Virus record (IMG/VR): IMGVR_UViG_3300007734_000756
Origin: an uncultured virus (IMG/VR IMGVR_UViG_3300007734_000756)
Lineage: Duplodnaviria; Heunggongvirae; Uroviricota; Caudoviricetes
Length of the DNA stretch: 61,810 nucleotides
Reading direction: 5' to 3' (one strand)
Position numbers and translations under genes: made by a program. Below are positions 978-52,200 of this stretch, in pieces. The notes under the pieces are model-generated. The model was not told the origin of the DNA, did no database searches, and worked only from the letters and a program-made list of their open reading frames with translations. Position 1 is the stretch's first letter, and the number at the start of each line of letters is the position of its first letter.

Positions 978-1946
978 TCATGCTGCTATTTGATTCCAGT
1001 TGGCGGTCTGTGAGTCGTTTACTGCTACATAAGAAGCGGTTTGTGAGTCATTGACGTTTATCCATGTTGCCACCTGACCCGTTCCCACACTACTCCACCC
1101 CGCGCTTTGCGCGTCACTCACATTCTGCCAGTTTGCGTTCTGGTCGTCATTAATTTGACCCCAGACATTTACTTGCCCGATAACTCCAATTGCCTGAACG
1201 CCTGATGGAGTTGCCGTCGCCCCGCCTGTAACAGTTACTGTACCTACAAAACCAGTCGCCGATACACCAGAAACAAGAACAATGATTGAATTAAGAACTG
1301 TAACCGTGCCAATTTGCCCGGTGGCTTGTACTCCAGTAACTGGGACAACCGCTGTACCGGTTATCGACGCCTGACCTATAACTCCCGTAGCAGAAACGCC
1401 AGAAGGAAGTACGGTCGCTCCACCAGTAACCGTAACAGTGCCAAGCTCCCCTGTTGCGGAAACTCCGGTTACTTGTACAAGAGAGCCTGCGGAGACTGTA
1501 ACGGTGCCGATCTGACCAGTGGCAACGTTGCCACTTACAATTACAACGGCAGTACCAGAAACAGTGACGGTGCCTATTGCACCGGTGGCTGATACCCCCG
1601 TTACGGCAACTACCGCCCCTGCATCAACAGTGACGGTACCAATCTCGCCGGTCGCTTGTACGCCGGTTACCGCAACATTCGCATCAGCCGTGACTACAAC
1701 TGTGCCAACTTCCCCAGTTGCCTGTACGCCTGAGACTACAACAATCGCTTCTGCTACTACAGTAACGGTGCCTATGAACCCCGTGGCCTGAACGCCTGTT
1801 ACCGGGACATCCGCATCAGCCGTTACTACAACCGAGCCTAAAAAGGTTTGAGCCGTGACTGCCGATTTGCCGACGCCCCAGCCCTGCTGCCCCCAGCCAA
1901 CGCCAGAGGCAGACCAACCTTCAAACGCTACGATTGCATCTGACAC
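978..1946 (-). CDS. Virion structural protein with ~21-aa V/T/G repeats
   Basis: About 11 repeats of VTGVxATGxIGTVTV; Trp-rich termini; located in the structural operon. Confidence 0.7.
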   Translation of the reverse strand: MSDAIVAFEGWSASGVGWGQQGWGVGKSAVTAQTFLGSVVVTADADVPVTGVQATGFIGTVTVVAEAIVVVSGVQATGEVGTVVVTADANVAVTGVQATGEIGTVTVDAGAVVAVTGVSATGAIGTVTVSGTAVVIVSGNVATGQIGTVTVSAGSLVQVTGVSATGELGTVTVTGGATVLPSGVSATGVIGQASITGTAVVPVTGVQATGQIGTVTVLNSIIVLVSGVSATGFVGTVTVTGGATATPSGVQAIGVIGQVNVWGQINDDQNANWQNVSDAQSAGWSSVGTGQVATWINVNDSQTASYVAVNDSQTANWNQIAA

Positions 1947-1948
1947 AC

Positions 1949-2368
1949 TTATGCAATCCTAATGATCGCAGACGAAGCATCGTTAGTCGGGAACTGAACG
2001 GTAAAGTTGCCGTTCGTAGAAGTCTTGTCCCCGCCAAAATCCAACACTGCAATCGCTTTGTTTGATTTACTTGAGTTGTAAATCAACGCCCCACGCGCCG
2101 TGATTGTGGCGTTAGACCAAGTAGTATCAGAGAAATCAACGAATGCCGTTGTACCCGATAGACTTACGGTTGCACCGGCCAAGGTATTACCGCCCGCCAC
2201 ATACCCAGTGCCCACCACTTCATCGGACGTGGTGTATACCGTCGTACTTGCCCCCAAAGTAGCAGCACTGGTATACAGCGCAATCTTGATTGTGTCCGTG
2301 TCCATGTCATGTTCACCCAGCAGAATCTGCTGTTTGAACGAAGAACACATTGCCTGAGAAATAGCCAT
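1949..2368 (-). CDS. Conserved virion structural protein
   Basis: 139 aa, beta-rich (IKIALYT...TARGALIYN...VLDFGGDK); GAGG RBS; operon context. Confidence 0.65.
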   Translation of the reverse strand: MAISQAMCSSFKQQILLGEHDMDTDTIKIALYTSAATLGASTTVYTTSDEVVGTGYVAGGNTLAGATVSLSGTTAFVDFSDTTWSNATITARGALIYNSSKSNKAIAVLDFGGDKTSTNGNFTVQFPTNDASSAIIRIA

Positions 2369-2371
2369 TTA

Positions 2372-3352: not shown

Positions 3353-3739
3353 CTAAGTCGTTACCGTTACTGTACCAACTTGGCCCACTGCAACCAAGTC
3401 ATTTGGCGTAAGCGGCGCATCAAATCCACTTGAACCACCTACTGGATTCCAGCCCCACTGAATCTGCCTACTACCTAAACCCAAATTACCGTCAGCCAAA
3501 GTTCCAGACGTAACGTACGTTGTATCTCGTCTTGGATTCCTCAGCGCCTGGGGATCATCAACTGGGTACATTCCAAGCTGAAGTTGAGGGTGATCCGGAT
3601 CCCAACATTCGTGACAGACCAACAAGTTAACTTGTTTGGTCTTGATGATCAGCTTCTGTAGATCTCGCAGACGATATCGAAATCCACACCGATCACACAT
3701 TGCAATGGCAATTTTGCCACTGGCAAATCTGTTACCCAT
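3353..3739 (-). CDS. Conserved Zn-ribbon phage protein
   Basis: CDRC and CHEC pairs followed by DPDHPQL. Confidence 0.7.
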   Translation of the reverse strand: MGNRFASGKIAIAMCDRCGFRYRLRDLQKLIIKTKQVNLLVCHECWDPDHPQLQLGMYPVDDPQALRNPRRDTTYVTSGTLADGNLGLGSRQIQWGWNPVGGSSGFDAPLTPNDLVAVGQVGTVTVTT

Positions 3740-15958: not shown

Positions 15959-16264
15959 TCATTCCAAATTCTTAAAGTTGATATACACCGGCCTAATCGT
16001 CCTTCCCAGCTTCCTAACCTTCTTCAATACCCCCAACTCCACCAACCTATCCACCAACCTCTGCGTATTCTTCATCCCCATCTTCCCCCTCAAATACGCA
16101 ATCTCCCTCACCGTAGGACTAAATCCATACCGCTTCCAAAACTCATCCACTATCAAAAACACCTCTTTCTGCGCCGGACTCACTATCCTCTCCATACACC
16201 CTTTATAACTACCCCCCTGCCTCATCCCAACATTTACCCTTACCCGCTTTACATAATCCTTCAT
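15959..16264 (-). CDS. LexA-like winged-HTH DNA-binding protein (no peptidase domain)
   Basis: SPAQKEVF..V.EFW...GFSPTVREIA...LVELGVL matches the LexA N-terminal domain; start uncertain. Confidence 0.7.
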   Translation of the reverse strand: MKDYVKRVRVNVGMRQGGSYKGCMERIVSPAQKEVFLIVDEFWKRYGFSPTVREIAYLRGKMGMKNTQRLVDRLVELGVLKKVRKLGRTIRPVYINFKNLE

Positions 16265-16267
16265 TTC

Positions 16268-16365
16268 TGTGCATAACCTGTGGATAACTACCCCAAAAGT
16301 GGAAATATTTCCACCCCCCACCCTATTTTTCACCCAAAACACTAGGGGGGGGTTCCGTATCCACA
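16268..16365. promoter_or_regulatory. DnaA-box cluster
   Basis: TGTGCATAA (16268-16276) and TGTGGATAA (16279-16287) fit TTWTNCACA; GTATCCACA (16357-16365) is an 8/9 match in the opposite orientation. Confidence 0.55.
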
Positions 16366-17207: not shown

Positions 17208-17402
17208 ATGAAACGACTAACACGGTGGCTACAGCCCTACAGAGTAATCGCAGTGGACGGATCCCTCGGAGTCTGGGAGCGCTGGACACACCGCGCCTGG
17301 ACACTCGATGACGCGCTGGCCTGGGCTCGCTGCTACCCCGCTGACGCCGTGATCATCATCACCACCCGCACTGGCCGCATCGTGGCCGCACGAGGAATCT
17401 GA
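17208..17402 (+). CDS. Early hypothetical protein
   Basis: AGGAG RBS; first gene of the GC-rich plus-strand block. Confidence 0.65.
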   Translation: MKRLTRWLQPYRVIAVDGSLGVWERWTHRAWTLDDALAWARCYPADAVIIITTRTGRIVAARGI

Positions 17403-17404
17403 CC

Positions 17405-17998
17405 ATGACACTCACCGTTCTCAACCGCAAGGGGATCCCCATGACCGACGATCAATTACACGCCGCTGCCCACAACATGGCTCGCATCGGCGGAGGATTT
17501 GCTAACGCCATCGCCACCGCCTACTTCCGCGCCGACTCGGACAACAAGGCCAAGCTGCTGCTGACCTTCGGCGACCTGTTCTCCCGTCACGCACTGGAGA
17601 CGGACGAGACGATCCGCGACGTGGTGAAGCAAATCCGCGAGCGCGCCAACGGACCCTGGTACGCCGTGGGCTGGGACCTAATCGCCGAGACGATGAGCGA
17701 CGAAACCCTGGAACGCTGGGTACAGAGTTACGGCACCCTTGCTGCAACCTGGGAGGCCCTGGCCAATGCCTACAACCTGCCCTCGATCCTCAACGGCGCC
17801 TGGGCGGTTCGCACGTCGGACACAGACGGACAGACGGTCCGGCAGTACAACCGCCTGGAAGAGGCCATCGCTCGCTACGGCGAAATGGCCGGAGAGACGC
17901 CAACGGATGCGCAAATTGATGCCCTGCTGGAAGGCCGTCTCGACGAGGTTGTCGCAGTGTCCGACTACGGCACCGGCGTGGTCCTGTACCGAATCTAA
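17405..17998 (+). CDS. Early hypothetical protein
   Basis: 197 aa (alternative start 17441); GGGFA.AIA.AY..AD..N motif; strong GC3 bias. Confidence 0.7.
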   Translation: MTLTVLNRKGIPMTDDQLHAAAHNMARIGGGFANAIATAYFRADSDNKAKLLLTFGDLFSRHALETDETIRDVVKQIRERANGPWYAVGWDLIAETMSDETLERWVQSYGTLAATWEALANAYNLPSILNGAWAVRTSDTDGQTVRQYNRLEEAIARYGEMAGETPTDAQIDALLEGRLDEVVAVSDYGTGVVLYRI

Positions 17999-18031
17999 AC
18001 CCCTGGGGCCTACGGGCCCCGCAACCTGGAG
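17998..18031 (+). repeat. Intergenic hairpin + RBS repeat, copy 1
   Basis: AACCCC-TGGGGCC-TACG-GGCCCC-GCAACCTGGAG. Confidence 0.8.
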
Positions 18032-18039
18032 AAGCAACC

Positions 18040-18486
18040 ATGATCGACCTGAACACCATCCTCAACACCGCCCTGACCCAGGCCCTCAACGAGGCCCTCA
18101 AGCCGCTGCTGGAGCGCATCGCCACCATCGAATCAAGTGTGCAGCACCTGGATGTCTGGAGCACAAGCACCGGCAACGTGATGACCGACCGTCTCACCGC
18201 TCTGGAAGCGCGCGTGATGGCCACCACCGATCCAGGCAGCCTGGATGCAATCTGCCACCGCCTGGACACCCTAGAGGCCCGAGAAGGCACGGTGGAAGAC
18301 CTGGAAGACACCATCGATGAACGGATCGGCACCTTCCTCGACAACGATGACTTGACGAGCCGGATCGACGTTGACGGACTAGACCTGCACCGCGCAATCG
18401 AGGAGGCCCTGGACGGAATGGACCTGACCGACATTGTCAGTGCTACGGTTCGTGACCTGCTGGCTGACGCTCGCATCACCCTCTAA
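18040..18486 (+). CDS. Early acidic coiled-coil protein
   Basis: 148 aa; GGAG RBS; heptad pattern. Confidence 0.7.
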   Translation: MIDLNTILNTALTQALNEALKPLLERIATIESSVQHLDVWSTSTGNVMTDRLTALEARVMATTDPGSLDAICHRLDTLEAREGTVEDLEDTIDERIGTFLDNDDLTSRIDVDGLDLHRAIEEALDGMDLTDIVSATVRDLLADARITL

Positions 18487-18519
18487 CCCCATGGGGCCCT
18501 CGGGCCCCGCAACCTGGAG
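18485..18519 (+). repeat. Intergenic hairpin + RBS repeat, copy 2
   Basis: AACCCCATGGGGCC-CTCG-GGCCCC-GCAACCTGGAG. Confidence 0.8.
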
Positions 18520-18525
18520 CACATC

Positions 18526-20135: not shown

Positions 20136-20137
20136 CC

Positions 20138-20163: not shown

Positions 20164-20169
20164 ACACTC

Positions 20170-20517: not shown

Positions 20518-20524
20518 GGCAACC

Positions 20525-33672: not shown

Positions 33673-36600
33673 CCGATTCTGCATTCTTGGCCAGATCGAT
33701 CAGCAGCAACTTCATCCGATCAATGTTCTCGCGCTTATCCTCTGCGCTCATGGAAGTGTCTTCTGTGTATATCCGGATGTACTGACGAATCTTGGCCATC
33801 TGCTTCGAGGTGTTGTCGTAGAGCTTAGCCAGCGCGACCTTGTCACCCTTCTCTTCCAAGATCGCCTGGACCTTGGCAGAGTCACCAATTGCTGCGTAAT
33901 GCCTCATGTCAGCAAACGCTTCGCTGATACCTTTGGCGTTCTCATAGAAGGACGTGACGTACTCAGACTGCGTGGCCGGCAGTGACTTGATGAACCCGAC
34001 ACTCGCGATGTCCACCCATTTCTCTGACGGGTATGCCCCTTCGTTGAACGGCGACATGGCGTGTTTAGATGCCCAGGCAATCGTTCCACCCAGCCAGCCA
34101 AAGTAAGCTTTGATTGCATACTCCGCCTGGACAGGAGACATCTCAGCTTTGGTAGGCAGGAACAGGTTAGAGATGCCACTGACTGCCATGGCCAACGGGC
34201 TGGTGTTGTCGGTCTTCCGCTCCTCTTTGGACAACCGCTCCATACCCGCGGATTCAATCGGCGCTCCAGTAAAGCTATCCTTGTTGGAGTACAGATCGAC
34301 CAGCGGCTTGAACATTTGCGGCATCGGGTTCAGAGAGAACGTATCCGAGATCATCCGGCGCAGCGTGTTCTCGAACTGCTTACCCTCAGCCTCTTCGTCA
34401 AAGATCTGCTCCGCCACCCGCTCTGCAATCGTTCCAAACGCGCCAATTTCAAACGGTTTCGGGATACGTAGTGCGTACTCCATTCCGGGCAACTTGAACC
34501 ACCAGAAGTTATCCCGATCCCAAGCATCCCGTTTCTTAAACTCTTCGTCATCCTTGCCTGCGAAGTACAAAGCCAGAGAAGCTAAGACCACAGCAGAAGT
34601 CACAGTGGTAAACGCGGTGGCTTTTTTCTTGTCATCCTGTTCAATCGGCTCGCCCGTGACAGTGTTATAGAACACCCGTACGGTCGGGCTAATGCCATCC
34701 CTGCCAAGCTTGTACAGACCTTGGACGCGAGCGTTGAAGAACGGGACAGTCTGAGCCAAGAACCTCACCGCCGGCCACGAGCCCTGCATTGAGAAGTCCA
34801 GCAGATCACGCGCCATGAACGATGCGGTCAAGTGATCCTTTCCTTGCTCGCGAAGCTGGTTGTACAACGCGATCCGGTTAGCCGCCTCGGACTTGTTGCC
34901 CCACTCCTGATACTTGTTCCACGCAGCCAAAAGCTTCTCTGTAACTTGGCCAGGGGAAGTCAAGATGGTGTCAGGATTGACGCCCTGTTTAATCAACCGC
35001 TTCACCAAGCGCGCTTGATCGCCCTCGTAGATCGATCCAAAGTTAAAGATCGCGCCACCAGCCAAGGCCGATAAGAACCGGGGATTGCTCTTGTCAGACC
35101 CCTTCCAACCTTCGTACACGTTGGTTACCGGGTTCCACTTCATATCTCCACCGGCCAGCGCGATTGCCTGGATAGAGTCGCGGAACAAGTTCCTTACCTT
35201 AAACGCAGGGCTCAAGGTCACGCCGTACTGCAGCATGTTCTTGAAGTCTTTCATCACGCTAACGAACTTGGACTGCGGACCCATGTACCCGATAGACGAG
35301 ATGGACTCAAACAGCATCGGATCAATAATCTGAACGTAGGTTGGGATACCCTCGAGCATAATCTTGACCGTGCTCTGAGCACCGTCTCTACGCTCAGTCA
35401 TCCAACCTTGCAGCGATCCATCTCCAACCATTTCTCCAGAAGACCGCAGATATACCTTGCCGTTTTGCCACATGTACTGAACCTTCAGGCTCGGTACCGC
35501 AGCATCCTGAGCAAACGCAGCATTAACTGTTTCAGCAGCAGCACGGTTCTTCATCGACGCAGAAAGGATGTGACTCCAGTTGCGTACGATGTTCTCCATC
35601 AAATCACCAAACGGGCTGGTGCCACCTTTGATGTTGTAAGAGAAGTACTGATTGGGCAGGCCAGATGAATCCATGGCGGCGGACAACATACCGTCTTCCA
35701 TCTCACGATAGAACGGGATGTACCACACGTCATTAGAGAACCGCTCATATCCGACCGGGTTCATCTCGAGATCCAAAACCTTTGCGGCTTTCTGATCATC
35801 AGTCAGATCGGTACGCTGCCAAGTCTTCTCAATCTCACGAGCGGTAGACGTAATCAAACCCTGGGTCATTGCAACGCTCAACACCGATTTGTTCAGTTTG
35901 TTGAGTTCGTTACGGGCTTTCATGTACAACTCAATCCGCGGTGTACCGTTAAGATCACCTTCCGCTAACAACTGACGTTCGTTGATCAGATCCTCGATCC
36001 CTTCGATCTTGGACTGACGACCAGTTTTCATCAGTTGAGCTTCACGATTCAACGCGATCCACATTAAGAATCGATCCACCTCGGGGCCGATAGGCTTCAG
36101 GATGTCCATCATCCCTTGGCTCTTGGGCTTGATGTCTAACGCGCCGTCATTCAGAAATACTTCGCCGTTAAACAGGAGGCCCTCGAGTGCTCCGTCTACC
36201 GTACGAGACATACGCGCCATGATGTATGCGCGTTCGCTGTAATCCTTGATGGTTCGATACTGATCGGCAACACCTTGAGCGACACGCCTCCAGAACCCGT
36301 CTCGCATCCCAGCGATCTTGTCGATGATCGTCGCCCGCTGCGGCGCGTAAATCGGCTGAGCTTTAGCCAGGAACTCTTCTGGCACCCCAACAAACTCTGC
36401 CGGGTTGAGCGGTTTACGTTTCTGCAGGAACTCCTGTGCCGTGTTAATGACCTTCTCACGACTGGGCACCACAGACTGTTTGATGTCGCTCTCAAACAGC
36501 ATCGTATCGGTTTGGAATTCACCGTTACCTTTAGCCAGACTATCTAGCGCGCGGATCACAGTGGCATCAGACGGCAAACCAAACATCGATTTGATCTTCT

Positions 36601-39600
36601 GCACAAACTCTTTGAGCCACTGCTGCAGCCTGGAGATCAGAGAGTCACCGTAGGCAAACCGGTTCTGAACAATTCTTGAACCGTTAACAGCCCAGAACTC
36701 AGACGGGTTGATGTACTGGTAGTAATCCGCCGGTACATCACCGTTCTTGATCATCTCCTTCGCCGTTGCCAGCAACTGATCAGGTGCAACCTCTGGTGAA
36801 CCAAAATGATACTGAGTCAACAACTCAAAGTATTGCTGTTCGCTTTCTGTCGTAGCCCGACGCGCAGCCGCGGTCAATTGCATCAGCCACTCAGTACCGA
36901 TTGCAGACTGAATGTCAGACGGCATCATCCGCTCAAGGTGATGCAGGATCTCGTGAACAGCCGTGTCGGCTTGCTCAACTTGCGGAACTAAACGAATGAT
37001 CTGGTCAATACTGTTGTACTCACCAGCAACACCCGCTTCTGCCTTGGTGCTGATGCTGATACCAAGCTGATCAACCAGCGCCGGATTCTGGCCAATAAAC
37101 CAAAGAGCAAGTTCAACGCCTTTGTCCGACAGCAGACCTTGACGCCGAGCACGGAGTAGACGTTCGCGGATGTAGTCAGCACCGCGTACCCGTTCGCCTG
37201 CTGCAGGTTTCTCAACTTGTGCGGCTTTATCAAGAGCAGTCTTCACGCCCTCGATAAACGCGGTATCACCGATTACGCCATCGGTATGCTGCTTGTTGAG
37301 AAACTTGATGCGACGTTTAGTCTGAACAGGCGCAGCTTTAGTAACCGACTGGATTGGGACAACAGACTGCAGCGGCGGATTGCTGGGCTTGTTCCGAGCA
37401 TCGATGATGTTCTTGGTATTCCGGTCACGTACATCTGCGACCAATTCCAAGTCGTACCCAGAACTACTAAGCACTTTGATAAGCAATTCTGTCGCGTCAG
37501 CCGCCGGAACTGCATTTGCCCGCATCTTATTGCCAGCAGAGGTAAAGGTAATGTTTTTTGTTTGTTTATGAATCTTGCCGCCTGTACCACCCTTACTGAC
37601 TTCAATCGTGTAGTACTGCGGAGTAATAGGATTGCGCTTAAGCTTAAACGTCTCGCCCATGCGCAACTTGTCTACAACCGTACCCCCCAGTTCAGCCAGT
37701 TCCAGAGCAGCCTGGGGTGAAGTAATAGCTGCCGCCTGTTGGGAAACTAATTTCTTGTAATCAAAACCGACCGGCATCAGGAAACCTTGCAGCAGGTTGC
37801 CCTGATTGTCTGTGTAACTAATTAAGTTTCCACCACCTGCAGCTTGTTTGCCGCGGAGCAGATTACCAGTGATGATGTACCGCTTCTCACGAGTCCCAAT
37901 TTGGCCACGGTCGAATGCCTGAGTGATGGGGATATCTTCGATAGAACCATTCTCAGTTGGAACGCCCATCGTTGTTGCGGGGCTCCAAACGATCTTATCT
38001 GCTTGGGCTGTTTCTGCTTCATTAGTGTTGGCTAACTGACTAAGACGCAACGTCATTGTTTGAGCCGCACCATTCACTAGTGCAAACCTGACTTCCCAGT
38101 CACTTAGTGACGCAGCAGACTTTGTACGGCCCTTTTTCTTAACGTCTATTACAACGCCATACAACACACCATCTTTGCTGCTAAGACTCACAATCTCCGA
38201 AATGCGTGGCAAACGTTTACGCACAATACTAATTGCGGCTTCCATCGCCGTGGTTTGCCTGTTGACAATTTCACGTTGCTCATCTGTTGCGTCTTTCGGC
38301 AAAGACTGAATGAGCTTTTGAATTTCTTCATCAACAGCATCTTTAAAACCTTGTGCTTGCTGATTACGCTTCGCTTCGGGCTTAGATCCGTCAAGTCCTT
38401 TAAGTGCTAACTCTCGGACCTGATCAAGCTTCAAAGGTTTGGTCAGTCGTTTAGCATCAACAACCTGAAGTACAACCGGCGCAGTAAACGGACTATCAGT
38501 GCCAGGATCTTGGGGCTGAAGCTCAAACGTTTCCACAACCCGAGCATCCAACTGTTTAACCTGAGCCTCGAGATCGTTCTGACCCAGAGACTCGATCAAC
38601 GCAATTTGATTGTTGTATTCCTCAATCAAGGTTTTGTAGAGCGCAGACTGTTCTGCAAGGGGAAGCAGACCAATGCGGCCCGTCACCTTGGCCATCGCTC
38701 CTTCTATTCTGGGATTCTGATCCTGATCAAACTTAATCGGGAAGCCCAATGTCGCGTTAAGCTCAGACCCTCCAACAACCTCAGCCGCTACACGATCCCC
38801 GTACTTGTTCATAAAGTCCGGCGTCTTCACGTCTTGAGTAGCAGTCTTCCTGCCGGCGGTGGTGTTAGCACTTAGTGCTGCCATCTTGTTAGCCAGCACA
38901 GCGGCTGGGCGAAGCTCGATAGGCACATTTGCCGACAGTTGGATGTAGTACGGCAGGCCAAACGTAGCAGGCTTACCTTCGGGCGAACGACCATCTTCGG
39001 TCACTTGGCCAGTGCGATTAATCCTACCCAGCATCTGAACGTGATTGTTGATGTCTGGCTCAGCCTGCGCCAGGATCATCACGCGCCGACGCTGATCAGC
39101 AAACTTCTCCGACGCATGCATCGACAGGCCAGTAGACCCGGACCTGTTGATGATTAGCGCATCAATCTGACCTTCGTTGAACTTGGAGATAGTGTTCTTT
39201 TTGCCAGCGGTATTGAGTTCTGATCTGTTCCTGGGCGTTAATCTAGCTACCCCGTCTTTAGTCGAAACAACAGTGTTACGACCAGTAATCTCACCAATCG
39301 AATACCCAGCCGCTTCGATACGTTCTTTGATGGCATCAATCGGCGAGATAGGGATGTCTAGTGTCCGGCCCATCGCCCGAATGAAATCTAGCGTATCTTC
39401 ATATGCCGACAGCGCCTCATCGCCAAGCTCATCATCTGTGAGGTAGTGAGGTAACTTGCGACCGTCAGGATAGGAAATCTTAACTGTTCGCACTTTCTCA
39501 AGGTAACGCTCGAGCACATCGGCAAACGATGCCTCAAGTACATTACCTATCTTAATATTGTTAGCTTCGGCAAAATCCTTAATGAACATTTCCATGGTGT

Positions 39601-42600
39601 TGGAAACCGTAATGACTGGTTTCTCACCACGCTGGATAGCAGCAACAGCTAGGTCTGCTGTTTCTTTAGACTTGAGCGCTAACAAGAACGTACCTAGTAC
39701 GTTGTGCATGACGCTAGTAAAGTTCGTGGCTTCGACTTGAGGCGCGGCTACAGAACCGTCCTCCATCACTTCGCCCTGCGTATCTAGATCCGCCTGCAGG
39801 TTGCGAACGGATTTGGCTTTGAGTTCATCAAATGCCACGATGTCGCGCATCGCAGTAGACAGATCTTCTGCTGCAGCCTGATCTACTTCCACTGTCTCGT
39901 TGGTGTATGAAATGCCAGCAAATGATCGTTCGCGGCGCAGATACTGTGTTGCTTTGACCAGCATCGCAGACACAGCTTGCTGCATCGGGATAGACGACAG
40001 GGCATTGATTAGACGATTGGGCTCCCCTGGGAACGCCATGCCGATATCGGTTTTGTTGTACGCATCCAGCACATCAACGTTCTTGGCAAACGTAGCAGAC
40101 GAGTAAAAGACGCTACCAGCTTTGTCGATGTACTCACGAGCGATATTTCCAAGACCCGTAGCTTGATTAACACCAGATCGTTTACCGATGTTATGAGACT
40201 CATCCATGATTAACATGGCGTTCTCATTAATGAATTGATTTAAGAACTCATGCCGGAAGTAAAGCTCTGGCTTTGGGTACCGCATAAGCCCAGCTTCATC
40301 GCGCTTTGGTTTACCAGAACTCTTAGGATTCATCTGGAAATATGACGTAAAGATCACGTCATAGTTGCCCAGTGACTTGTTATCCATTATCTGCTTGAGC
40401 GCAGCCTCATGCCGTTTGTTATCCGGCGTATCAAGAAACTTGCCGCGGCGCTCAGGAATAGAAGCTCGCAATTCAGCAATTTGTTCTTTTAGTTCTTTTA
40501 CTTCTTCATCAGTTGACGAATTAATAAATTTAGTAAGCGCAGTGTCTCGTTCTTGTCCTTCTAGTTTTGTAAATTTTTCGCCTAATTGAATACTTGCAAT
40601 ATCAGCCGCTACTTCACGCACTTCTGTGATGTCGGCCTCAATCTCTTGTTTCTCGCCATACCATTGCAACGCTTCGGCATCTAATGGCACAGACTTGTTG
40701 TTATCCGTCATCAGCGGACGGACATCAGTCATTCCGATGTCATGCAGGTCGCGCATGATGTCGCCATACAAATCTGCCATCTGTGTAACAAACACAGGAA
40801 CCTTCTTGTTCAACATGGCATAGCGGATCATGCCTGCCACAACACGGCCTTTGCCAATACCGGTCTGATCTCCAATGATGAATCCGCGATTAGATTCAAT
40901 GTTGTAGATCGACAGAGCAAGAGCCTCTACCTGCTCAGCAGAGAAAGCTTGTGCAAACTGTTCCGGCGTGTACTGCAGTTTGTTCTGCACGTACTGATCA
41001 ATGTCGCCGACCTTCTCACGCAACTTGGCAAACGCATCTTCAATAGGCGTGAGGTGGTTGGTAGCAACCAGCGTATTGACTGATTTGTTACCAGAGAAGT
41101 TGTTATACGGAACCTGCAGACGCTGTGTCTGCTCTTCCGTCAGTCGTGCTCGAGCCGGCCCCGCAGCAGCGGTTGTATCCACTGGAGCAGGCTCGCTTGG
41201 TTGTACACCTCTTCCGCCTTCGGGTCGTTCTTCTCCAGCACCCTCGGCAGTCCCGGCCCCGGCACCCTCCGCTTCTCCAGTAGGTCTTTCACCACCGGGT
41301 TCTCCGCCAGGAGCAGGAGCGGCACCTCGTCCCTCTCCAGCGGCACCTCCAGCAGGCCCGCTTGGTGCAGCAGGCTCTCCACCTGTTTCAGTTCCCGGTC
41401 GTCTGCCTTCTCCGCCAGCTTCTTCAGCCGCACCTCCAGTTGTAGGCGGTGCTGCTGGGGGTTGAGGCGCAGCCCCTTCGGCCCCTGTATCGCCCCCAGG
41501 AGGCGTCTCTCGTCCCCGGAAGGGCCCCATGTCATTGTTTGTGCCATCCAGAACTCCTCGTAGCTCATCCCAGGTTGTAATCAACCGGGGCAGCGCAGCA
41601 GCAGGCAAGTTGCGTTTAGTTGCATTAGCCTTGCGTCCGTCGATAACAATCATATCAACGGGGTAGGTTGTACCTTGCTTAGCGTATAGATCACCCGCAA
41701 CCGTGAAGTGATCTACAACGTTGTACTCATTGTAGAGTTTGTAGAAAAACTCACGCTTAGACTTGCCCCGATAAGCAGTCCGACGCGAGTCTTCATCCAA
41801 ACGATTTGGTCCGCCGATCAACAGGACAGCACGGCCATCATCCTTCATAGCCGTGAGCGCGTTCAACGCAATCGCGTGATCACGCTGCTTAGTCTCAAAT
41901 CCATCGATGTTATAAGTCTGTTCGCCTTCTCCATACGGAGGGTTAGTCAGTACTACATCTACAGACTTGGGCTGAAATTTCATTGACCCAGCATCTTGCT
42001 GGCTAACTTTGAACCCTTGGGATTCAAGTGCCGCTACTCGGTCAGGATTAATTTCATTGACCGTTGCCTTATCTGCATCGGTAAAAATAAGTAATGCGCC
42101 CTGACCAGCGGTAGGTTCTAAAACTGTGTTGTCAACGTTATCGTAGAGTCCTGATAACTGAATTGCCGCGTGAGCAAGTGGCAACGGTGTGCTGTATGCT
42201 TGATTAGCAATACTGACGCTGTCTCTAACTCCAAGAGTCGGCATCTGCTTGTTATTAAAGTCAACAAGCCGGTTATAAATGTCTTCCGTATATTCTTCTT
42301 TTTCTACCACTTCCCGGCCATACACCACGCCAGCAAGTTCTACAGCCTCGTCTACCAGCTTCGCATCAGGAGTGCCGGGTTCAATCCTACGTCCGAGCAC
42401 ATCACCGGCAGCTCTCCGAGCCTCATTAATGTTGGCAAACCCTTTGCCATCTCGGAAGGTTTGCAGGAACGAATTAGCCAAGCGTACGCGCTCAGGCGCA
42501 GCAGGAGCTTCTGTCTCTGCCAGGATAGCGTCAACGTCTGCAGCTTCGACGGCGGCACTAGAATCCAAACCTTCAAGATCCGCAGCACGGGGATCAAACT

Positions 42601-45298
42601 TCACGCCCATGTACCAGGACTTGAGATACGGCTTAACAATATCTCCAAGGTCTCCGACCATTGCCTTGGCATAAGCAGCAAAAGTCCTGGCACCCTTTTC
42701 AATGTGATAGATGGCCAGCGTAATGCCGTCTTGCACAATCTCAGGATCAATACCGGATCTAAGAGTGCCGCCACTTAGTTTGCGACGCAACCGTTCTCTG
42801 GCTTGTGCTGCGGCTTCCTCACTGACTATCTTGTTAGCCCCAACCTCAACCTTGGGCTTTTGTGGAGGTTCAACAGTGGGAGGTTTAGGCGGAGTAGCCG
42901 GAGGTTGTGTAGGCGTAGTAGAAGTGCCAGAAGGTGTTGGCTGTGCAACTCCCCCTTTAGGCTGATAACCTTTCCCACCTTTTAGCCACGACTCAGAGGG
43001 ATAAGAACTAAACGGCGGCTGGGACAACCAATTTTCTAACCTACTGCGTCTGCCAAACAATTCTTCTATAGCCTGACCCGACCCGCCAGCTTGTTGCAAT
43101 GCATCAATTTGCGAAGACAAGGAATCAAGTTCTTCGCTAGCGCGCTTAACATTATTGGCTTCTTTTTGAGTGCCAAACGTTTGCGCCCAATTTCCATTAA
43201 TTAAGAATTGCCACCCATCAGGTACATCTACACCGTTTTCATCTCTAAATGCTTGTTCAACAGTGTATTTAGACGGAGCTGTAGGGGCAGGCTCAGTTAC
43301 GCCTGCCGGCGCTTGCGGTGGCGGAGTTGCCGTTTCACCAGAAGACGGTTGACGCGGCGGTAACTTACTGACTTGCGATTCATATTGCTGTCGGGCCTGT
43401 TGTTCACTAGGCCACAGCGTCATCTCAGGCAAGTACTGTTTAGCGTCCTGGTCATAGACGCCAACACCAAACATGCCTGACTTGTTCTTAAACAAGCGAA
43501 GTTCAGTGTTCTCTCCGCTAGGCGTAGCTGACAAAATCTCTGCAGATGCATATTGCCGTTTCTGCAGTTCCGTTCTCAAATCAACATCTGGGAACAACGC
43601 AGCAAATTTTTTTGTTTCCTCACGAACAGCTCGATCAGAAGAACTAAAATTATTGTCAATCAACTGCTGTTCTTGTGCCGCTAAAGATTCCCATTCAGCG
43701 CGTTTAGCCGATCCTTCCGGAGGAATGCGACCTTTAGCATCAAGTAATGCTCGTTTCTTTTCTCGGAGAGCCTGTACTTCTTGGACCACAGCATCACGTT
43801 GCTGCTGAGCGTCTTGCACGGCCTGTAAACTTTGCTCGAGCGTAGGCTTCTCTGCCGGAACTTTCTTTGTTTCTTCAACCGGGGGCGTGACCGTGGGCGG
43901 AGCAGTAACCGGTGGCGCTCCTGTGGGCGGAGCGGCAGGCGCGGCAAACTTGGCCTTAAGTAGCTGGTATACCTGATCTTCCGTAGAGCCCAGCATCTGC
44001 GGTTCTTGATCCGGCGTACCCTGTACTTTTTCTTGCAAACGTCGGAACAACTCGCGCTGCTGATCTTCCGGCAACTGGTTGACCATAGTTTGCACAGCCG
44101 CGCCAGCAGAAGGCGGTGAAGGCGGTGAAGGCGGTGCGACCCCGGACGGAGGAGCTATCGGACCAGCGGGGGGAGCGCCAGGGGTGGCAACGTTGCCACC
44201 CTCCGGGGGTGCCTCAGCCGCAGGAGCCCCGCGTAACAGTCCAAATACACCACCCAAAGTACCGCCACCGATAGCAGCCATGGCCGCGGTAGCACCCAAC
44301 CCGGCAGTAAGTGACTGCTCCGGCTTGATGGTCTGCATGGCGATGTTACTGGCAAGTTTGCCACCCACCTCCTCGACCATCTCACTAGCCGACTCACCCA
44401 GCAAACCAGTAATGCCGCGACCCAAGCGGGTCGATTCGAGCTGGGACATAAATCGTTGTCCAGCCCCGGTCTCGGCAGCTTCTCGTACAGACTTAGCCAC
44501 CGGCATTCTGGCCATCGTCTGTTCAATCGTACGCGCGCCCGGTAGTCTCTGCGCCAGGGTGGAAATCACCAACGCTGACGCGCCCACTGCTCGAGCGCGA
44601 TCCAACGCGGTTTGTTTGGCTACGTCAGGATCAATCCCTTGTTGTACAAGTTCTTTGTACATTTCTTCAAAGGATTGAGCACCAACATCAGCGCCCTGCT
44701 GAATAGCGCCAGCACCAATAGCCGCCGCGGTACCGGTACGGGCAGCAATCTCGGCACCCTCTTGAAGACTCCTGCCGGCCATCGCGGCTCTGGCTGCACC
44801 CGCCGCTGTGCCTAGTTTTGCAGCACCAAACGGTACTACTAACTGCGGGATCTGCTCAGTTAAAAACGTACTAATCAGCGCTGGATCTTTAACCGTTTCC
44901 CCGAATGCCACGCCAAACGCAGGCAGTTGGCCACCCGCTCGTTCTGCCTCTTCAATCTTCCTGGCGCGTTCATATTCACGGGCTACCAAACCGGGCGATT
45001 TAAGCCCCTGGCCAGTCTTCTTAATACGCTCGCCAAGTTGGAATAGTCCTGTCTCAGTGTCGCCAGTTCCTAGCGCATATAGCTGGGCGGGAAACTGAAC
45101 CAAGGCCCCAAGGCCGGAGGTAAGTGCAGCGCCAGGATCGCGCAGGAAGGCTTCGCCAACGGTACGTTCTTTGGCTTTTTCTCTGACCGACGCGCCTTGC
45201 TCTGCGATAGCCTGCTGCAAGACTGACTGTGGTGTGCCTTCCGGCGCTTCAATTGAATACGTATATCCATCAGGACCGCGTACCTGGAAGGTCGGCAT
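33650..45298 (-). CDS. Giant polyvalent (DarB-like) injected protein: N6-adenine methyltransferase, Strawberry-notch SF2 helicase, zincin metallopeptidase, LPD38
   Basis: VLEPTAGQGALL and NPPY (MTase); GDQTGIGKGR, DESHN, SSATF, QMLGRINRTGQ (SNO helicase); AVHEILHH (HExxH); RIPKPFEIG...NKDSFTGAPI (LPD38-like). Confidence 0.85.
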   Translation of the reverse strand: MPTFQVRGPDGYTYSIEAPEGTPQSVLQQAIAEQGASVREKAKERTVGEAFLRDPGAALTSGLGALVQFPAQLYALGTGDTETGLFQLGERIKKTGQGLKSPGLVAREYERARKIEEAERAGGQLPAFGVAFGETVKDPALISTFLTEQIPQLVVPFGAAKLGTAAGAARAAMAGRSLQEGAEIAARTGTAAAIGAGAIQQGADVGAQSFEEMYKELVQQGIDPDVAKQTALDRARAVGASALVISTLAQRLPGARTIEQTMARMPVAKSVREAAETGAGQRFMSQLESTRLGRGITGLLGESASEMVEEVGGKLASNIAMQTIKPEQSLTAGLGATAAMAAIGGGTLGGVFGLLRGAPAAEAPPEGGNVATPGAPPAGPIAPPSGVAPPSPPSPPSAGAAVQTMVNQLPEDQQRELFRRLQEKVQGTPDQEPQMLGSTEDQVYQLLKAKFAAPAAPPTGAPPVTAPPTVTPPVEETKKVPAEKPTLEQSLQAVQDAQQQRDAVVQEVQALREKKRALLDAKGRIPPEGSAKRAEWESLAAQEQQLIDNNFSSSDRAVREETKKFAALFPDVDLRTELQKRQYASAEILSATPSGENTELRLFKNKSGMFGVGVYDQDAKQYLPEMTLWPSEQQARQQYESQVSKLPPRQPSSGETATPPPQAPAGVTEPAPTAPSKYTVEQAFRDENGVDVPDGWQFLINGNWAQTFGTQKEANNVKRASEELDSLSSQIDALQQAGGSGQAIEELFGRRSRLENWLSQPPFSSYPSESWLKGGKGYQPKGGVAQPTPSGTSTTPTQPPATPPKPPTVEPPQKPKVEVGANKIVSEEAAAQARERLRRKLSGGTLRSGIDPEIVQDGITLAIYHIEKGARTFAAYAKAMVGDLGDIVKPYLKSWYMGVKFDPRAADLEGLDSSAAVEAADVDAILAETEAPAAPERVRLANSFLQTFRDGKGFANINEARRAAGDVLGRRIEPGTPDAKLVDEAVELAGVVYGREVVEKEEYTEDIYNRLVDFNNKQMPTLGVRDSVSIANQAYSTPLPLAHAAIQLSGLYDNVDNTVLEPTAGQGALLIFTDADKATVNEINPDRVAALESQGFKVSQQDAGSMKFQPKSVDVVLTNPPYGEGEQTYNIDGFETKQRDHAIALNALTAMKDDGRAVLLIGGPNRLDEDSRRTAYRGKSKREFFYKLYNEYNVVDHFTVAGDLYAKQGTTYPVDMIVIDGRKANATKRNLPAAALPRLITTWDELRGVLDGTNNDMGPFRGRETPPGGDTGAEGAAPQPPAAPPTTGGAAEEAGGEGRRPGTETGGEPAAPSGPAGGAAGEGRGAAPAPGGEPGGERPTGEAEGAGAGTAEGAGEERPEGGRGVQPSEPAPVDTTAAAGPARARLTEEQTQRLQVPYNNFSGNKSVNTLVATNHLTPIEDAFAKLREKVGDIDQYVQNKLQYTPEQFAQAFSAEQVEALALSIYNIESNRGFIIGDQTGIGKGRVVAGMIRYAMLNKKVPVFVTQMADLYGDIMRDLHDIGMTDVRPLMTDNNKSVPLDAEALQWYGEKQEIEADITEVREVAADIASIQLGEKFTKLEGQERDTALTKFINSSTDEEVKELKEQIAELRASIPERRGKFLDTPDNKRHEAALKQIMDNKSLGNYDVIFTSYFQMNPKSSGKPKRDEAGLMRYPKPELYFRHEFLNQFINENAMLIMDESHNIGKRSGVNQATGLGNIAREYIDKAGSVFYSSATFAKNVDVLDAYNKTDIGMAFPGEPNRLINALSSIPMQQAVSAMLVKATQYLRRERSFAGISYTNETVEVDQAAAEDLSTAMRDIVAFDELKAKSVRNLQADLDTQGEVMEDGSVAAPQVEATNFTSVMHNVLGTFLLALKSKETADLAVAAIQRGEKPVITVSNTMEMFIKDFAEANNIKIGNVLEASFADVLERYLEKVRTVKISYPDGRKLPHYLTDDELGDEALSAYEDTLDFIRAMGRTLDIPISPIDAIKERIEAAGYSIGEITGRNTVVSTKDGVARLTPRNRSELNTAGKKNTISKFNEGQIDALIINRSGSTGLSMHASEKFADQRRRVMILAQAEPDINNHVQMLGRINRTGQVTEDGRSPEGKPATFGLPYYIQLSANVPIELRPAAVLANKMAALSANTTAGRKTATQDVKTPDFMNKYGDRVAAEVVGGSELNATLGFPIKFDQDQNPRIEGAMAKVTGRIGLLPLAEQSALYKTLIEEYNNQIALIESLGQNDLEAQVKQLDARVVETFELQPQDPGTDSPFTAPVVLQVVDAKRLTKPLKLDQVRELALKGLDGSKPEAKRNQQAQGFKDAVDEEIQKLIQSLPKDATDEQREIVNRQTTAMEAAISIVRKRLPRISEIVSLSSKDGVLYGVVIDVKKKGRTKSAASLSDWEVRFALVNGAAQTMTLRLSQLANTNEAETAQADKIVWSPATTMGVPTENGSIEDIPITQAFDRGQIGTREKRYIITGNLLRGKQAAGGGNLISYTDNQGNLLQGFLMPVGFDYKKLVSQQAAAITSPQAALELAELGGTVVDKLRMGETFKLKRNPITPQYYTIEVSKGGTGGKIHKQTKNITFTSAGNKMRANAVPAADATELLIKVLSSSGYDLELVADVRDRNTKNIIDARNKPSNPPLQSVVPIQSVTKAAPVQTKRRIKFLNKQHTDGVIGDTAFIEGVKTALDKAAQVEKPAAGERVRGADYIRERLLRARRQGLLSDKGVELALWFIGQNPALVDQLGISISTKAEAGVAGEYNSIDQIIRLVPQVEQADTAVHEILHHLERMMPSDIQSAIGTEWLMQLTAAARRATTESEQQYFELLTQYHFGSPEVAPDQLLATAKEMIKNGDVPADYYQYINPSEFWAVNGSRIVQNRFAYGDSLISRLQQWLKEFVQKIKSMFGLPSDATVIRALDSLAKGNGEFQTDTMLFESDIKQSVVPSREKVINTAQEFLQKRKPLNPAEFVGVPEEFLAKAQPIYAPQRATIIDKIAGMRDGFWRRVAQGVADQYRTIKDYSERAYIMARMSRTVDGALEGLLFNGEVFLNDGALDIKPKSQGMMDILKPIGPEVDRFLMWIALNREAQLMKTGRQSKIEGIEDLINERQLLAEGDLNGTPRIELYMKARNELNKLNKSVLSVAMTQGLITSTAREIEKTWQRTDLTDDQKAAKVLDLEMNPVGYERFSNDVWYIPFYREMEDGMLSAAMDSSGLPNQYFSYNIKGGTSPFGDLMENIVRNWSHILSASMKNRAAAETVNAAFAQDAAVPSLKVQYMWQNGKVYLRSSGEMVGDGSLQGWMTERRDGAQSTVKIMLEGIPTYVQIIDPMLFESISSIGYMGPQSKFVSVMKDFKNMLQYGVTLSPAFKVRNLFRDSIQAIALAGGDMKWNPVTNVYEGWKGSDKSNPRFLSALAGGAIFNFGSIYEGDQARLVKRLIKQGVNPDTILTSPGQVTEKLLAAWNKYQEWGNKSEAANRIALYNQLREQGKDHLTASFMARDLLDFSMQGSWPAVRFLAQTVPFFNARVQGLYKLGRDGISPTVRVFYNTVTGEPIEQDDKKKATAFTTVTSAVVLASLALYFAGKDDEEFKKRDAWDRDNFWWFKLPGMEYALRIPKPFEIGAFGTIAERVAEQIFDEEAEGKQFENTLRRMISDTFSLNPMPQMFKPLVDLYSNKDSFTGAPIESAGMERLSKEERKTDNTSPLAMAVSGISNLFLPTKAEMSPVQAEYAIKAYFGWLGGTIAWASKHAMSPFNEGAYPSEKWVDIASVGFIKSLPATQSEYVTSFYENAKGISEAFADMRHYAAIGDSAKVQAILEEKGDKVALAKLYDNTSKQMAKIRQYIRIYTEDTSMSAEDKRENIDRMKLLLIDLAKNAESVRKSMKQ

Positions 45299-49276: not shown

Positions 49277-49277
49277 A

Positions 49278-52200
49278 TCAACCTCTCAACATTTTGATTA
49301 ACTCATCATTAGTCATGGGCGCTTCCTGATACGGGCTAGTCAGTTGTTCCCACGGGATAAACTGTTCTGGCTGTTTCATCGGAGCCTGGGGCGGCTGCTG
49401 CTGCTGTTGCGATTGTTGCATCATTCCCAGCAATCCTAACAGCCCAAACAAATCCATGGACTGATCCTGCCGCTGAGGAGGAGGGGGTGGCGGCGGGGGT
49501 GGCGGCGGAGGTGGCTGTGGTGGAGGCGGTCGGGGGGGTTGCTGCGGTGGGGGTTGTTCTTCACGCGGAACAGTAAGATCAATCGGATTGCCATCTGCAT
49601 CAGTCAAATGGATCGTACCGTCGTCTTCAACAATTAAAACGTTGCCGTCATCATCAACAAATACATCTGCAGGGCGTCCGGTCTGATCGCCTTCAACTTC
49701 AAAACCAAATCCTGGTTGGGTATCTTGTCCTGTACCCAGACCCATAAGTGCGTCAACATCTGCTTGAAGATCCCGCTCTTCCGCAGTCCCGCCCAAATCC
49801 ATAAGCGCGTCAACATCTGCTTGAAGGTTTTGAGCATTTGCGAGATCGGTACCCGCCTTTTCGTTGTAAGAAATTTCGTCGCCAGTATCCCAAGCGCCTC
49901 GAAGATCACCTTCGTCTATATCTGTACCTTCACCTAAATCCGCACCCCCTGCGTCTGCATCTGTACCGACACTTAAACCTCCTGCGTCTGTGTCTGCATC
50001 GTACCCACCTGCAGGGGTGTCTTCACCCTCTACGTCTGCGTCTGTACCTTCACCTAAACCTGTGCCAACGCCCAGACTGCTTGCGTCTGTATCTGCATCG
50101 TATTCACTCGAAGCAGCATCCTCACCGTCTGCACCTACGCCGGTATCTTCACCGCCACCCAGCGTGTCTTCTGGAAAGGAGGGTGGCAACGTTGCCAGAT
50201 AGGCGTCTATATCCCCGCCAAACTGTTGATACGTTTCATCGTCAGGGAAGCCGCGCTCTTGAGCCAACTGATCTCTAAACTGCTTTTGTTGAATCTCATA
50301 CTGCCGACCGCTTTCTTCAAGCTTGCGCTCATCTTCTAAGTGTTTGGCATAACGCTCTTTGCTGCCACCAAACTCATCACGCGTCGCAGCATCCGGCCAA
50401 CCCTCAGCAGATGCAAGATCATCTTGATACGCCGTTGAATCTCCGTCGTAACTTAAATAAGTAACATAATCAGGGAACCCGGCATCAGTCGCTTGGTCTT
50501 GCCTAAACTGTTCAACGTTGCCTTGATACAGGTTATAGATATCTACATTGGGGAAACCAAGCTCGTCGGCTAATCTTTCGCGCTCTGCTTGCTGATCAGA
50601 GCGGTAAGCATAGATATCGCCGTTATAAAATTTATATGTTTCATAGTCGTCAAAACCGTAATCTCTGGCTATTTGAGCTTTTTCAGTTTCAGTAAGCTCT
50701 GGTTCAACAGCCTGAACGGTGTCGTTCCCTGTGCCGCCTGCAACCGTGTCCTCGCCCTCAACAGCTTTGACCGTATCGTTACCTGAACCGCCCTCAACTG
50801 TTTTGTCTCCAACAACAGCAGCGGTGTCGTTACCAGTCCCGCCGTAGATAATTTCTTCTGCTTCCCGCGCTTCTCTTGCTTTGCGCTCTTCGTCCGTCTC
50901 GCCGCCAAGCAGATCATTTCCCAAGCCGCCGGTAGGCGTATCGACTACAGTGCCATCGCCCGGTTCAAACTCTTCAGCATCTTCTCCGGGCGTATAGGGG
51001 AATGGCTCTGTTGATGGCTTGGTACCAAAGAACTCTTCTACGCCTAAACCGGGGGTTAACGGAGTCAAAGGCACTTCAGGAGCGCCTATAGGCTCTACAT
51101 CAGCACGTGGCAGACTCGCTTGATAAGCTTCAACGTCACCTTCAAACCGTTGTTGCGTGGCGTAATCAGGGAAACCTGCTTTCTGAGCGTCAAGCTCACG
51201 CTGCCCAGTAACAAATTCTTTTATGTCAGTAAACGTAGAAGACTCATCTCGCTTACCAATAAACTTCAATAAGTCTTCATCAGACGGTTCAAACCCAATG
51301 TCGTCAAAGAACTCTTTAGCTTCATCACGCGTGACGGCTTGACTATCAAACTGCTCAGTAAATTGCTTAGTTAGCTCTTTCTCATCGCCTTGTTGAACTA
51401 AAGCAAGCAGATCATCCTGCGTGAGTGTCAGCCCTTCTTTCTGTGCAATATCAGCCAGTTCGGCGGCATCTAGCGTACGATCGTCAACAAAGCTATTAAT
51501 TAATCCTTGTAAGTCAGCATCAGCACCTTCACCGACAAACTTTGCAATGTCAGCGGGACTAGCCTCGTAATCGGCAAATAACGGGTTATTGGCAAACGCA
51601 TTCGCTACTTCATCGCTAGTGCGGAAGTTTTGATCTAATGTATTAACCGCTTCTGTTGCGATCTCTTTTGCAACATCACTAATTTCTTCACCAGCGACCT
51701 CTGACAAACCGGTGATGCTTTTGTCCAAATCTCCTAAATACTTATCACGATCTACCAACAGATCTTGAATTGTTTTGTTTAACCCACCGTTTCCATCTTC
51801 ACCAAATAACTTAGTTACATAGCCATCATAAGTATCTACTTTGTCATCTAACTTGGTTTTATCAGTGTTAAACGTTGCAAGCTTTGTATTAAAATTTGTT
51901 ACGGCTGATTCAAATTGCGGAATATTAGTATTTAAATAATCTGCTTGTTTTTCTAACGTATCTTTTGCATGAAGCCCAAGGCTAAGCACAAATTCATTAG
52001 TAGTAGGATTTACATAATATGTTCCATACTCTGGATCATTAATCTCAACCAAACCCATGCGCTGCGCGTATGCTGTATTAGCGGCAGGGTTGTAATGAAT
52101 AGTGTTAGATTTCCAATCGTAGATTTGACCGGATAAATTTAATAAATTAGACGAATCTTTAAGATTCTGTTGTTTTGTATTTAACGCCGTAGACTCTGAA

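Follow-up and report, generated by a model that had tools for sequence, protein, structure and literature searches.

A 61,810-nucleotide stretch of DNA from an uncultured virus of the Caudoviricetes (IMG/VR record IMGVR_UViG_3300007734_000756), the whole of which is here called the window, carries one 16-base-pair (bp) palindrome at places scattered along its length, two of which fall inside a gene for a ParB-like protein. The question raised by this locus is which protein reads the palindrome, and to what effect. On balance we consider it probable, from sequence comparison, that an orphan ParB-family protein of the phage itself has its cognate sites in these palindromes; the protein would resemble KorB or Noc and work without ParA. 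Binding of the palindromes by the protein encoded at 22983-23771 is the part of this proposal that we would call likely, while the regulation of operons as its main role, the one we favour, is possible if somewhat doubtful.

The palindrome, GTGGCAACGTTGCCAC, is present in five exact copies (1519-1534, 23266-23281, 23329-23344, 24592-24607 and 44184-44199) and in one copy matching at 15 of 16 positions (50183-50198). An earlier, sequence-only reading of the window had placed all six correctly, along with two TGGCAA-NN-TTGCCA variants that are indeed present at 3705-3720 (TGGCAATTTTGCCA) and 44349-44364 (TGGCAAGTTTGCCA), both of them relaxed matches to the motif. The copies at 23266 and 23329, 63 bp apart, both lie in the linker-coding part of the ParB-like gene, and the intergenic copy at 24592 lies 821 nucleotides upstream of the gene's start codon, in agreement with the distance of about 0.8 kb given before. 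The others are found in a 322-residue open reading frame (ORF; 1519), near the 5' end of a 3882-residue ORF (44184, at residue 367) and in a 1233-residue ORF (the 15/16 copy at 50183). Four of the five intragenic copies are read as (S/G)GNVAT (SGNVATG at 1519, SGNVATP at both sites in the ParB-like gene and GGNVATP at 44184) and the fifth, at 50183, as LATLP; among the three frames of the palindrome, two are used by these five copies. Intragenic placement is in itself unremarkable because the coding density of the window is about 96%.

Chance would supply 0.02 matches to GTGGCAACGTTGCCAC on average, and none of 100 dinucleotide shuffles reached six. From the GNVAT and LATLP readings it had been argued that the constraint lies on the DNA and not on the proteins, and a codon-preserving shuffle had been proposed as a check. 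In 500 such shuffles, which kept all protein sequences and the codon usage, the 14-mer core TGGCAACGTTGCCA occurred 1.03 times on average, with the intergenic copy immovable and hence one copy fixed, against six observed, and no shuffle reached six. This excess places the constraint on the DNA, as had been argued. A seventh palindrome of the same build, the perfect 16-bp GTGGAAATATTTCCAC at 16299-16314, had been overlooked; it lies in the gap between the stop codon of the small terminase gene (TerS) and the gene for a small winged-helix protein. Matches to the relaxed form TGGNA-N4-TNCCA number 11 in the window against 1.04 expected, and relaxed variants also lie near the end of the primase gene (TGGAAGTTTTACCA, 20627-20640) and in the helicase gene (TGGCAGATATGCCA, 22070-22083). 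The window in total holds seven perfect or near-perfect sites and 11 relaxed ones.

In a near-identical phage (L005), the main palindrome stands at the position equivalent to 16299-16314 of the window. The packaging module looks to have been swapped in from a phage of the other site type, judging by its sequence, because the 14.0-18.5 kb region around the 16299 palindrome is 88% identical to L005 compared with 96-98% elsewhere.

The ParB-like gene (22983-23771, minus strand) encodes 262 residues, and its assignment as an orphan ParB-family protein comes from PHROG 1033 ("ParB-like partition protein", E 1e-16), a predicted structure and Foldseek. The structure, predicted from 40 homologues with a mean predicted local distance difference test score (pLDDT) of 87, has an alpha/beta N-domain of ParB/Srx type (residues 1-90), a helix-turn-helix (HTH) domain (100-139) with its recognition helix at 132-139, a disordered linker (140-178) and two long helices (179-261) that we read as a coiled coil. 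Foldseek aligned about 140 columns, covering the N-domain and the HTH, with ParB of Myxococcus, Bacillus and Caulobacter (E 2e-7 to ParB 7bnk) and with Noc (7nfu, 7ol9) and KorB (8qa9/8qa8), and the HTH at 100-139 follows the N-domain directly within these matches. Sulfiredoxin matched the N-domain alone. A profile search of PDB sequences returned sulfiredoxin first (5e-8) and then Spo0J (1e-4), and in the Spo0J alignment the Q-x-R, the G-x-x-R (with the second R of GERR) and the N are retained. Homologues of the protein numbered 258 at E<=0.001 among 1415 candidates, and Pfam PF02195 is precomputed on many of them.

The two ends of the protein differ from those of a partition ParB. Its first residues already belong to the conserved domain, which leaves no room for an N-terminal peptide of the kind that contacts ParA, and residues 179-261 gave no structure match, so that no ParB-type C-terminal dimerisation domain was found there. 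Folding of two copies of the protein together scored 0.45 against 0.58 for the control, a result that we count neither for nor against self-association. The protein, then, has a ParB fold by its structural model, yet it is without the canonical cytidine triphosphate (CTP) motif, a ParA partner or the ParB-type C-terminus. Nucleotide binding is plausible, but neither sequence nor AlphaFold3 predicts the nucleotide specificity of ParB-fold proteins, as stated in the part of PMC12704722 available to us.

The module formed by the N-domain and the HTH also occurs outside phages. One Planctomycetes chromosome has at least eight copies of it (L180, L181, L186, L192, L193, L196, L202 and L218), which match residues 3-140 to 3-155 and are without the coiled coil, and assemblies of Planctomycetota commonly contain the module.

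Two scans of viral contigs gave more than 540 relatives each, and the best 80 from each scan yielded 121 loci for comparison. A helicase gene lies next to the ParB-like gene in 117 of the 121, followed by a primase gene in 109, the same order as in the window, where an SF2-type DNA helicase (21513-22979, minus strand; Pfam and PHROG) lies directly downstream of the ParB-like gene and a Toprim-type DNA primase (20692-21516, minus strand; PHROG) comes third. TerS, the small winged-helix gene and the large terminase gene (TerL) are found some 7-8 kb downstream of the ParB-like gene in related loci. The ParB-like family itself was found almost only on viral contigs, with few full-length relatives in bacterial assemblies. 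In five complete or near-complete relatives with ParB-like proteins 39-43% identical to that of the window, TGGNAACGTTNCCA occurs 11, 12, 8, 3 and 3 times, and the reversed control not at all. The pairing of palindrome and ParB-like protein is most likely common to hundreds of related uncultured phages.

The placement of a site inside the gene is also shared. GGNAACGTTNCC lies inside the gene in 34 of 183 distinct homologous genes (36 sites), and 35 of the 36 sites are at residues 120-169, corresponding to the linker after the HTH. A homologue 59% identical to the window's protein (L006) has GTGGAAATATTTCCAC at the equivalent spot, where it encodes SGNISTP, and this site differs by symmetric changes in both halves (positions 5/12 and 8/9). 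In another homologue (L066) the in-gene site is in another reading frame, and a Paracoccus homologue with the recognition helix VSNRY has TGTGAACGTTCACA at the in-gene spot. In a histogram of site positions around the gene, the main peak is in the gene (26 strict sites), with 13 sites in a further peak at +2.0-2.5 kb and 9 in another at +7.5-8 kb. The positions of the sites are kept even between genomes in which the ParB-like proteins share no more than about 40% identity. The conserved addresses are the ParB-like gene or its immediate flanks, the region upstream of the early operon, the neighbourhood of the primase end (with sites after the primase in G004 and G006), the stretch between TerS and TerL, and the 5' part of the giant gene (with sites in that region in G003 and G004). 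In the TerS-TerL interval, 26 of 56 loci have relaxed sites; their density there is 0.79 per kb compared with 0.139 per kb overall, and they sometimes come as two or three copies spaced 37-70 bp apart.

If the ParB-like protein reads the palindrome, the bases of the site would be expected to follow its recognition helix, and we compared the two at residues S131-H132-T133-F134-V135. Residue 132 goes with the outer bases: loci with H132 have 0.15-0.22 relaxed motifs per kb, those without it 0.023-0.025, and the control 0.018. Residue 133 goes with the variable base, which is C in 66 of 74 half-sites of loci with SHTFV or SHTYV and T or A in 146 of 148 half-sites of seven H132 helix types with P or V at 133. 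Among the in-gene sites, the same rule (C with T133, T or A with P/V133) fits 31 of 31. Residue 134 goes with the centre, ACGT being present in 110 of 198 sites with F/Y134 versus 2 of 30 with L134. When every C-type locus was matched to the T/A-type locus closest to it, 15 pairs resulted, of which five have ParB-like proteins 84-92% identical (L125 and L066 versus L128; L047 versus L064; L030 and L137 versus L017) and were counted as three independent contrasts. Conservative changes at residue 138 aside, T133P is the only recognition-helix change common to all five. These patterns make residues 132, 133 and 134 candidate specificity switches for the outer TGG, the variable base and the ACGT centre, respectively.

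The relatives with a different recognition helix agree with this. Ten of them have no TGGNAACGTTNCCA sites, and eight of the ten match the broader pattern TNNNAACGTTNNNA about as often as the control. Of the remaining two, one has TGACAACGTTGTCA in three copies and the other matches TNNNAACGTTNNNA twice, one match being a perfect palindrome with a different outer sequence. Several such relatives have palindromes of their own: GGTAACTAGTTACC twice, TGGAAGATCTTCCA twice with three near copies, CTCAAACGTTTGAG twice with two near copies, and the three copies of TGACAACGTTGTCA. Two relatives with the helix SPQLV (L062, 19468-19897; L065, 11343-11770) have four to five tandem copies of CGTTAAATTTAACG, about 110-160 bp apart and about 9 kb downstream of the gene, which could be their site cluster or an origin.

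The makeup of the sites gives a further indication of how they may be read. The 52 distinct T/A-type sites comprise 25 hybrid, 22 T/T and 5 A/A sites, and free assortment of half-sites predicts about 23 hybrids. Since hybrids occur at the free-assortment frequency, the half-sites appear to be read independently, as fits a dimeric protein.

Several results weigh against the proposal that the ParB-like protein reads these sites and regulates from them. The protein did not reach Pfam PF02195 at E<=0.01, and its nucleotide motif departs from that of ParB, with GFHRY opposite GERRY and A in place of the E of ENLQ. Tree-aware sign tests of the helix-site association are non-significant (6-7 supported independent pairs, of which about 4 go the same way and 0-0.2 the opposite way; median p 0.125), and the in-gene rule amounts to about 3 changes on the tree (p 0.5). 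In a raw mutual-information scan that took in the ParB-like, helicase, primase, TerS, winged-helix and other proteins, residue 133 did not stand out, and columns of the helicase and of other proteins scored higher, by a measure that is inflated by highly variable columns. There are also exceptions to the rule, namely three to five T133 loci with T/A sites and one P133 locus with a C site. Finally, the intergenic count given below is based on crude ORF calls in the relatives, and the promoter calls are consensus matches whose geometry differs between relatives. The co-variation of palindrome and recognition helix that the sequence-only reading suggested looking for is present, in that residues 132, 133 and 134 track the bases of the site, but tree-aware tests do not make it significant. 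Its more general claim, which linked the palindrome to the ParB-like protein, is supported by the fold, by a site in or near the gene across deep divergence, by the helix tracking and by the failure of a LexA-like rival to track the sites.

Sites near promoters suggest what such binding might do. Six genomes together have 43 strict sites, and 13 of these lie between genes, against about 2-3 expected from the 4-7% of their DNA that is non-coding. In the window, the copy at 24592 abuts the TTGACA of a promoter-like site, TTGACA-18-TACGAT (24562-24591, minus strand; a consensus match only, with TG before the second hexamer), that points into the leftward operon of the ParB-like, helicase and primase genes, and a terminator-like hairpin with a T-run (24616-24636, minus strand) lies just upstream of the palindrome on the same strand. 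A -35-like hexamer abuts the site in G003 and G004 and is 10 bp away in G006; in other cases a clear promoter was not seen. The intergenic enrichment, the site abutting the -35 and the conserved positions at operon junctions together point to a KorB-like regulatory role.

Whereas the fold, the site positions and the helix tracking are observed, it is binding, dimerisation, nucleotide gating and regulation that we infer, and they might fit together as follows. In a dimer, presumably joined through its C-terminal coiled coils, either HTH domain would read one half-site, TGG-N-A, and a ParB relative without ParA would in this way dock at a handful of dispersed palindromes, as KorB or Noc does. 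Some of the sites are at promoters and operon junctions, among them those of its own operon and of the packaging genes, and others in coding frames that tolerate them. From there the protein would, in the role that we favour, control the operons for replication and packaging, perhaps as a clamp that is gated by a nucleotide and moves off the site. A wider picture, which we hold tentatively and regard as rather unlikely, is that a large family of uncultured, mostly freshwater podophages has its own ParA-less ParB-like system, in which a nucleotide-gated clamp closed by the coiled coil loads at 6-12 conserved addresses, namely its own gene, the promoter of the early operon, the primase end, the TerS-TerL junction and the gene for the giant injected protein, and times or organises the whole phage chromosome, which would make it the phage equivalent of KorB or Noc.

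Other features of the same region were noted. The leader of the ParB operon (24375-24560, minus strand) folds strongly, with a minimum free energy of -81.8 kcal/mol (z -4.6). Its structure, in which a U-run comes after a long stem, has no match in Rfam and could be an attenuator or a small RNA. A 20-nucleotide direct repeat (95% identical) occurs just upstream of the ParB-like start (23791-23810) and in the divergent early promoter region (25015-25034). A sigma-54 reading was rejected, as the GG-to-GC spacing does not fit the consensus.

KorB of plasmid RK2 has the same combination of a ParB-type N-domain and an HTH, and its short palindromic operators are likewise dispersed over a replicon of about 60 kb, some directly upstream of a -35 and others far from promoters. 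KorB has a ParA-type partner. The phage, in contrast, has no recognised ParA or KorA, the small ORFs neighbouring the gene being without family, and its protein differs from KorB in the C-terminal coiled coil of about 80 residues, in the GFHR motif and in the lytic-looking phage setting. In the available part of PMC11790492, KorB operators are described either 4-10 bp upstream of promoters (directly upstream of the -35) or far away, and KorB as a CTP clamp that slides and works with KorA. Noc resembles the phage protein as an orphan ParB relative without ParA that has many dispersed palindromic sites and is matched by Foldseek. It is a chromosomal protein that tethers DNA to the membrane through an N-terminal helix, and the phage protein, unlike it, has no N-terminal extension.

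Canonical ParB/Spo0J and parS are alike in fold, in a 16-bp palindrome with a central ACGT and in a site within the protein's own gene, since the Bacillus spo0J gene contains a parS site. They are unlike the phage system in that the latter has no ParA, has GFHR for GERR, lacks the E of ENLQ and has a different dimerisation domain, and the canonical parS, as cited in the sequence-only reading, differs from the phage palindrome in its outer bases. PMC12704722 describes orphan ParB-fold proteins, which form an established class on mobile elements and phages. By the account in its available part, they resemble the protein studied here in being encoded outside a parAB operon, on a mobile element, and in being without a ParA-binding motif; no DNA sites are assigned to them in that part, and in this they differ from the present case, for which a site family and specificity residues are proposed.

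Judging by a virus record of 61,829 bases that is rated 98% complete and shares 98% of sampled words with it, the window is essentially an entire phage genome. Pfam and PHROGs recognised the large terminase, a probable small terminase (a weak PHROG match), portal, major capsid protein and an SU10-type adaptor, and a tail fibre, a lysozyme and an ejection-type protein were recognised as well. The replication and recombination genes include Erf, SSB, a PD-(D/E)XK exonuclease, endonuclease VII and the helicase and primase described above. Searches of 84 ORF translations in Pfam and 57 in PHROGs turned up no ParA, integrase, DNA polymerase, methyltransferase or TET/JBP enzyme, and the deviant Walker A motif KGGxGK[ST] is present in none of the six frames of the window, in line with what the sequence-only reading had reported for parA and integrase. 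Rfam and tRNA scans of the window gave no matches, and NCBIfam gave none for the ParB-like protein or its neighbours. A DNA search of cultured or deposited phages returned one record with 13% query coverage, and a protein search six records with partial matches at 31-40% identity.

The conserved order of ParB-like, helicase and primase genes (117 and 109 of the 121 loci) would also suit a replication initiator that recruits the adjacent helicase and primase to an origin formed by the in-gene palindromes. This reading, which we think unlikely, draws further on the sites in the linker-coding part of the gene and on the fact that no other initiator or DNA polymerase was recognised in the Pfam and PHROG scans. 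It has a parallel in lambda O, whose gene contains the origin: there, too, dyad-symmetric sites lie in the linker-coding part of the gene for the protein that binds them, beside replication genes. Lambda O has a different fold, however, and the phage sites are genome-wide with no adjacent AT-rich region. Where a lambda O-type origin has an iteron cluster and an AT-rich region, the gene here has two copies in surroundings with a G+C fraction of 0.56-0.59 (23200-23399). Moreover, most relatives have one in-gene site or none, and the 3-12 sites of each genome are dispersed, at conserved places far from the gene. The ParB/Srx fold is not known from replication initiators.

The site or small cluster between TerS and TerL in 26 of 56 loci has to be weighed together with the uncharacterised genes that fill 17.2-20.7 kb between primase and TerS, as both would fit a protein that guides a DNA-modifying enzyme or the packaging machinery to the sites. 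The idea of ParB acting at a terminase locus is raised in PMC6536676, and phage ParB homologues that activate thymine dioxygenases, and so DNA modification, are reported in PMC13229309, each in the part available. We judge such guiding improbable: no methyltransferase, TET/JBP or other modification enzyme was recognised in the window, and the dioxygenase-linked ParBs, as far as the available part of PMC13229309 describes them, have no DNA-binding domain, whereas an HTH is present here. A reading of the palindromes as packaging sites was also considered and set aside; the physical genome ends are inseparable from assembled terminal repeats.

A different factor might read the palindrome, either the small LexA-like winged-helix protein (15959-16342, minus strand; Pfam) or a host regulator. 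LexA-type proteins bind palindromes as dimers, and a site lies beside the winged-helix gene in the window and in G002, G003, G004 and G005. The true start of this gene in the window is probably an ATG downstream of the 16299 palindrome. The LexA-like HTH had been named as the binder that would speak against the ParB-like protein, and its helix does not track the site type. The putative recognition helix is identical in the C-type loci L125 and L066 and the T/A-type locus L133, as well as in the T/A-type locus L128 over its partial sequence, and it is nearly unchanged between loci with and without the motif (for instance G009 versus L036 and G007 versus L013). A host factor, for its part, would leave both the placement of sites in the gene and the helix tracking unexplained. 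We therefore hold another reader of the palindrome to be quite improbable.

Partition or positioning, in which the sites would serve as centromeres and a host ParA or SMC would be borrowed, was suggested in the sequence-only reading, and we now regard it as very improbable. A ParB-type fold and 16-bp palindromes near the gene would be in keeping with it, and phages and plasmids with dispersed centromere sites exist. Against this, neither ParA, a deviant Walker A motif, an integrase nor a repressor module was found in the window, the protein has no N-terminal ParA-contacting peptide, and the near-restriction of the family to viral contigs, with its few full-length relatives in bacterial assemblies, does not favour partition either. 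Nor do the data speak for condensation or protection of the phage DNA with the help of host ParA or SMC. A role of the palindromes as nucleic-acid hairpins, be it a cruciform or an RNA signal for stability or processing, is hardly credible. Their RNA folds are stable (-9 to -15.6 kcal/mol) and the symmetric changes also keep pairing, but 25 of the 52 T/A-type sites, as many as free assortment would give, are hybrids whose stem would contain a mismatch (T-T or A-A), the would-be loop ACGT is the most conserved part, and sites lie upstream of promoters as well as in genes.

Taking the palindromes as sites of the ParB-like protein, what appears new, going by sequence, is the family of uncultured phages, the coiled-coil C-terminus, the non-canonical nucleotide motif, the site in the protein's own linker and the specificity code, although supplements of the cited papers might list the subfamily. 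In the literature searched, a motif string is present in three papers only, all of them on Giardia. Orphan ParB-fold proteins are common on phages and mobile elements, their DNA targets being unnamed in the available part of PMC12704722, and one of them could here be paired with a target in silico. As the protein is small and its site has 16 bp, direct tests of binding, of nucleotide gating and of function are within reach. The system would also be a case of a DNA signal, regulatory or structural, written into the linker-coding part of its own binder's gene and into tolerant frames of unrelated genes, and, if the regulatory reading is true, long-range control by a clamp would no longer be confined to a plasmid but would reach phages that look lytic.

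Some further genes of the window deserve mention. The 3882-residue polyvalent protein (33650-45298, minus strand) has LPD38, Strawberry-notch-type helicase and AAA_34 domains and is probably injected; its gene has one exact and one variant site near the 5' end, like the homologous genes in G003 and G004. Between primase and TerS, 17208-20707 (plus strand) is an island of high GC content (up to 63%), whose opposite-strand genes have no family. One of its ORFs (19431-20135, 234 residues) belongs to PHROG 2554, with DUF7227 or GP88 in a minority of look-alikes, and an Atlas search with it returned only viral, uncharacterised proteins. Lastly, a GIY-YIG homing-endonuclease-like gene (56587-57072, minus strand) lies just downstream of a 170-residue ORF and overlaps the 5' end of the lysozyme gene (56123-56605).

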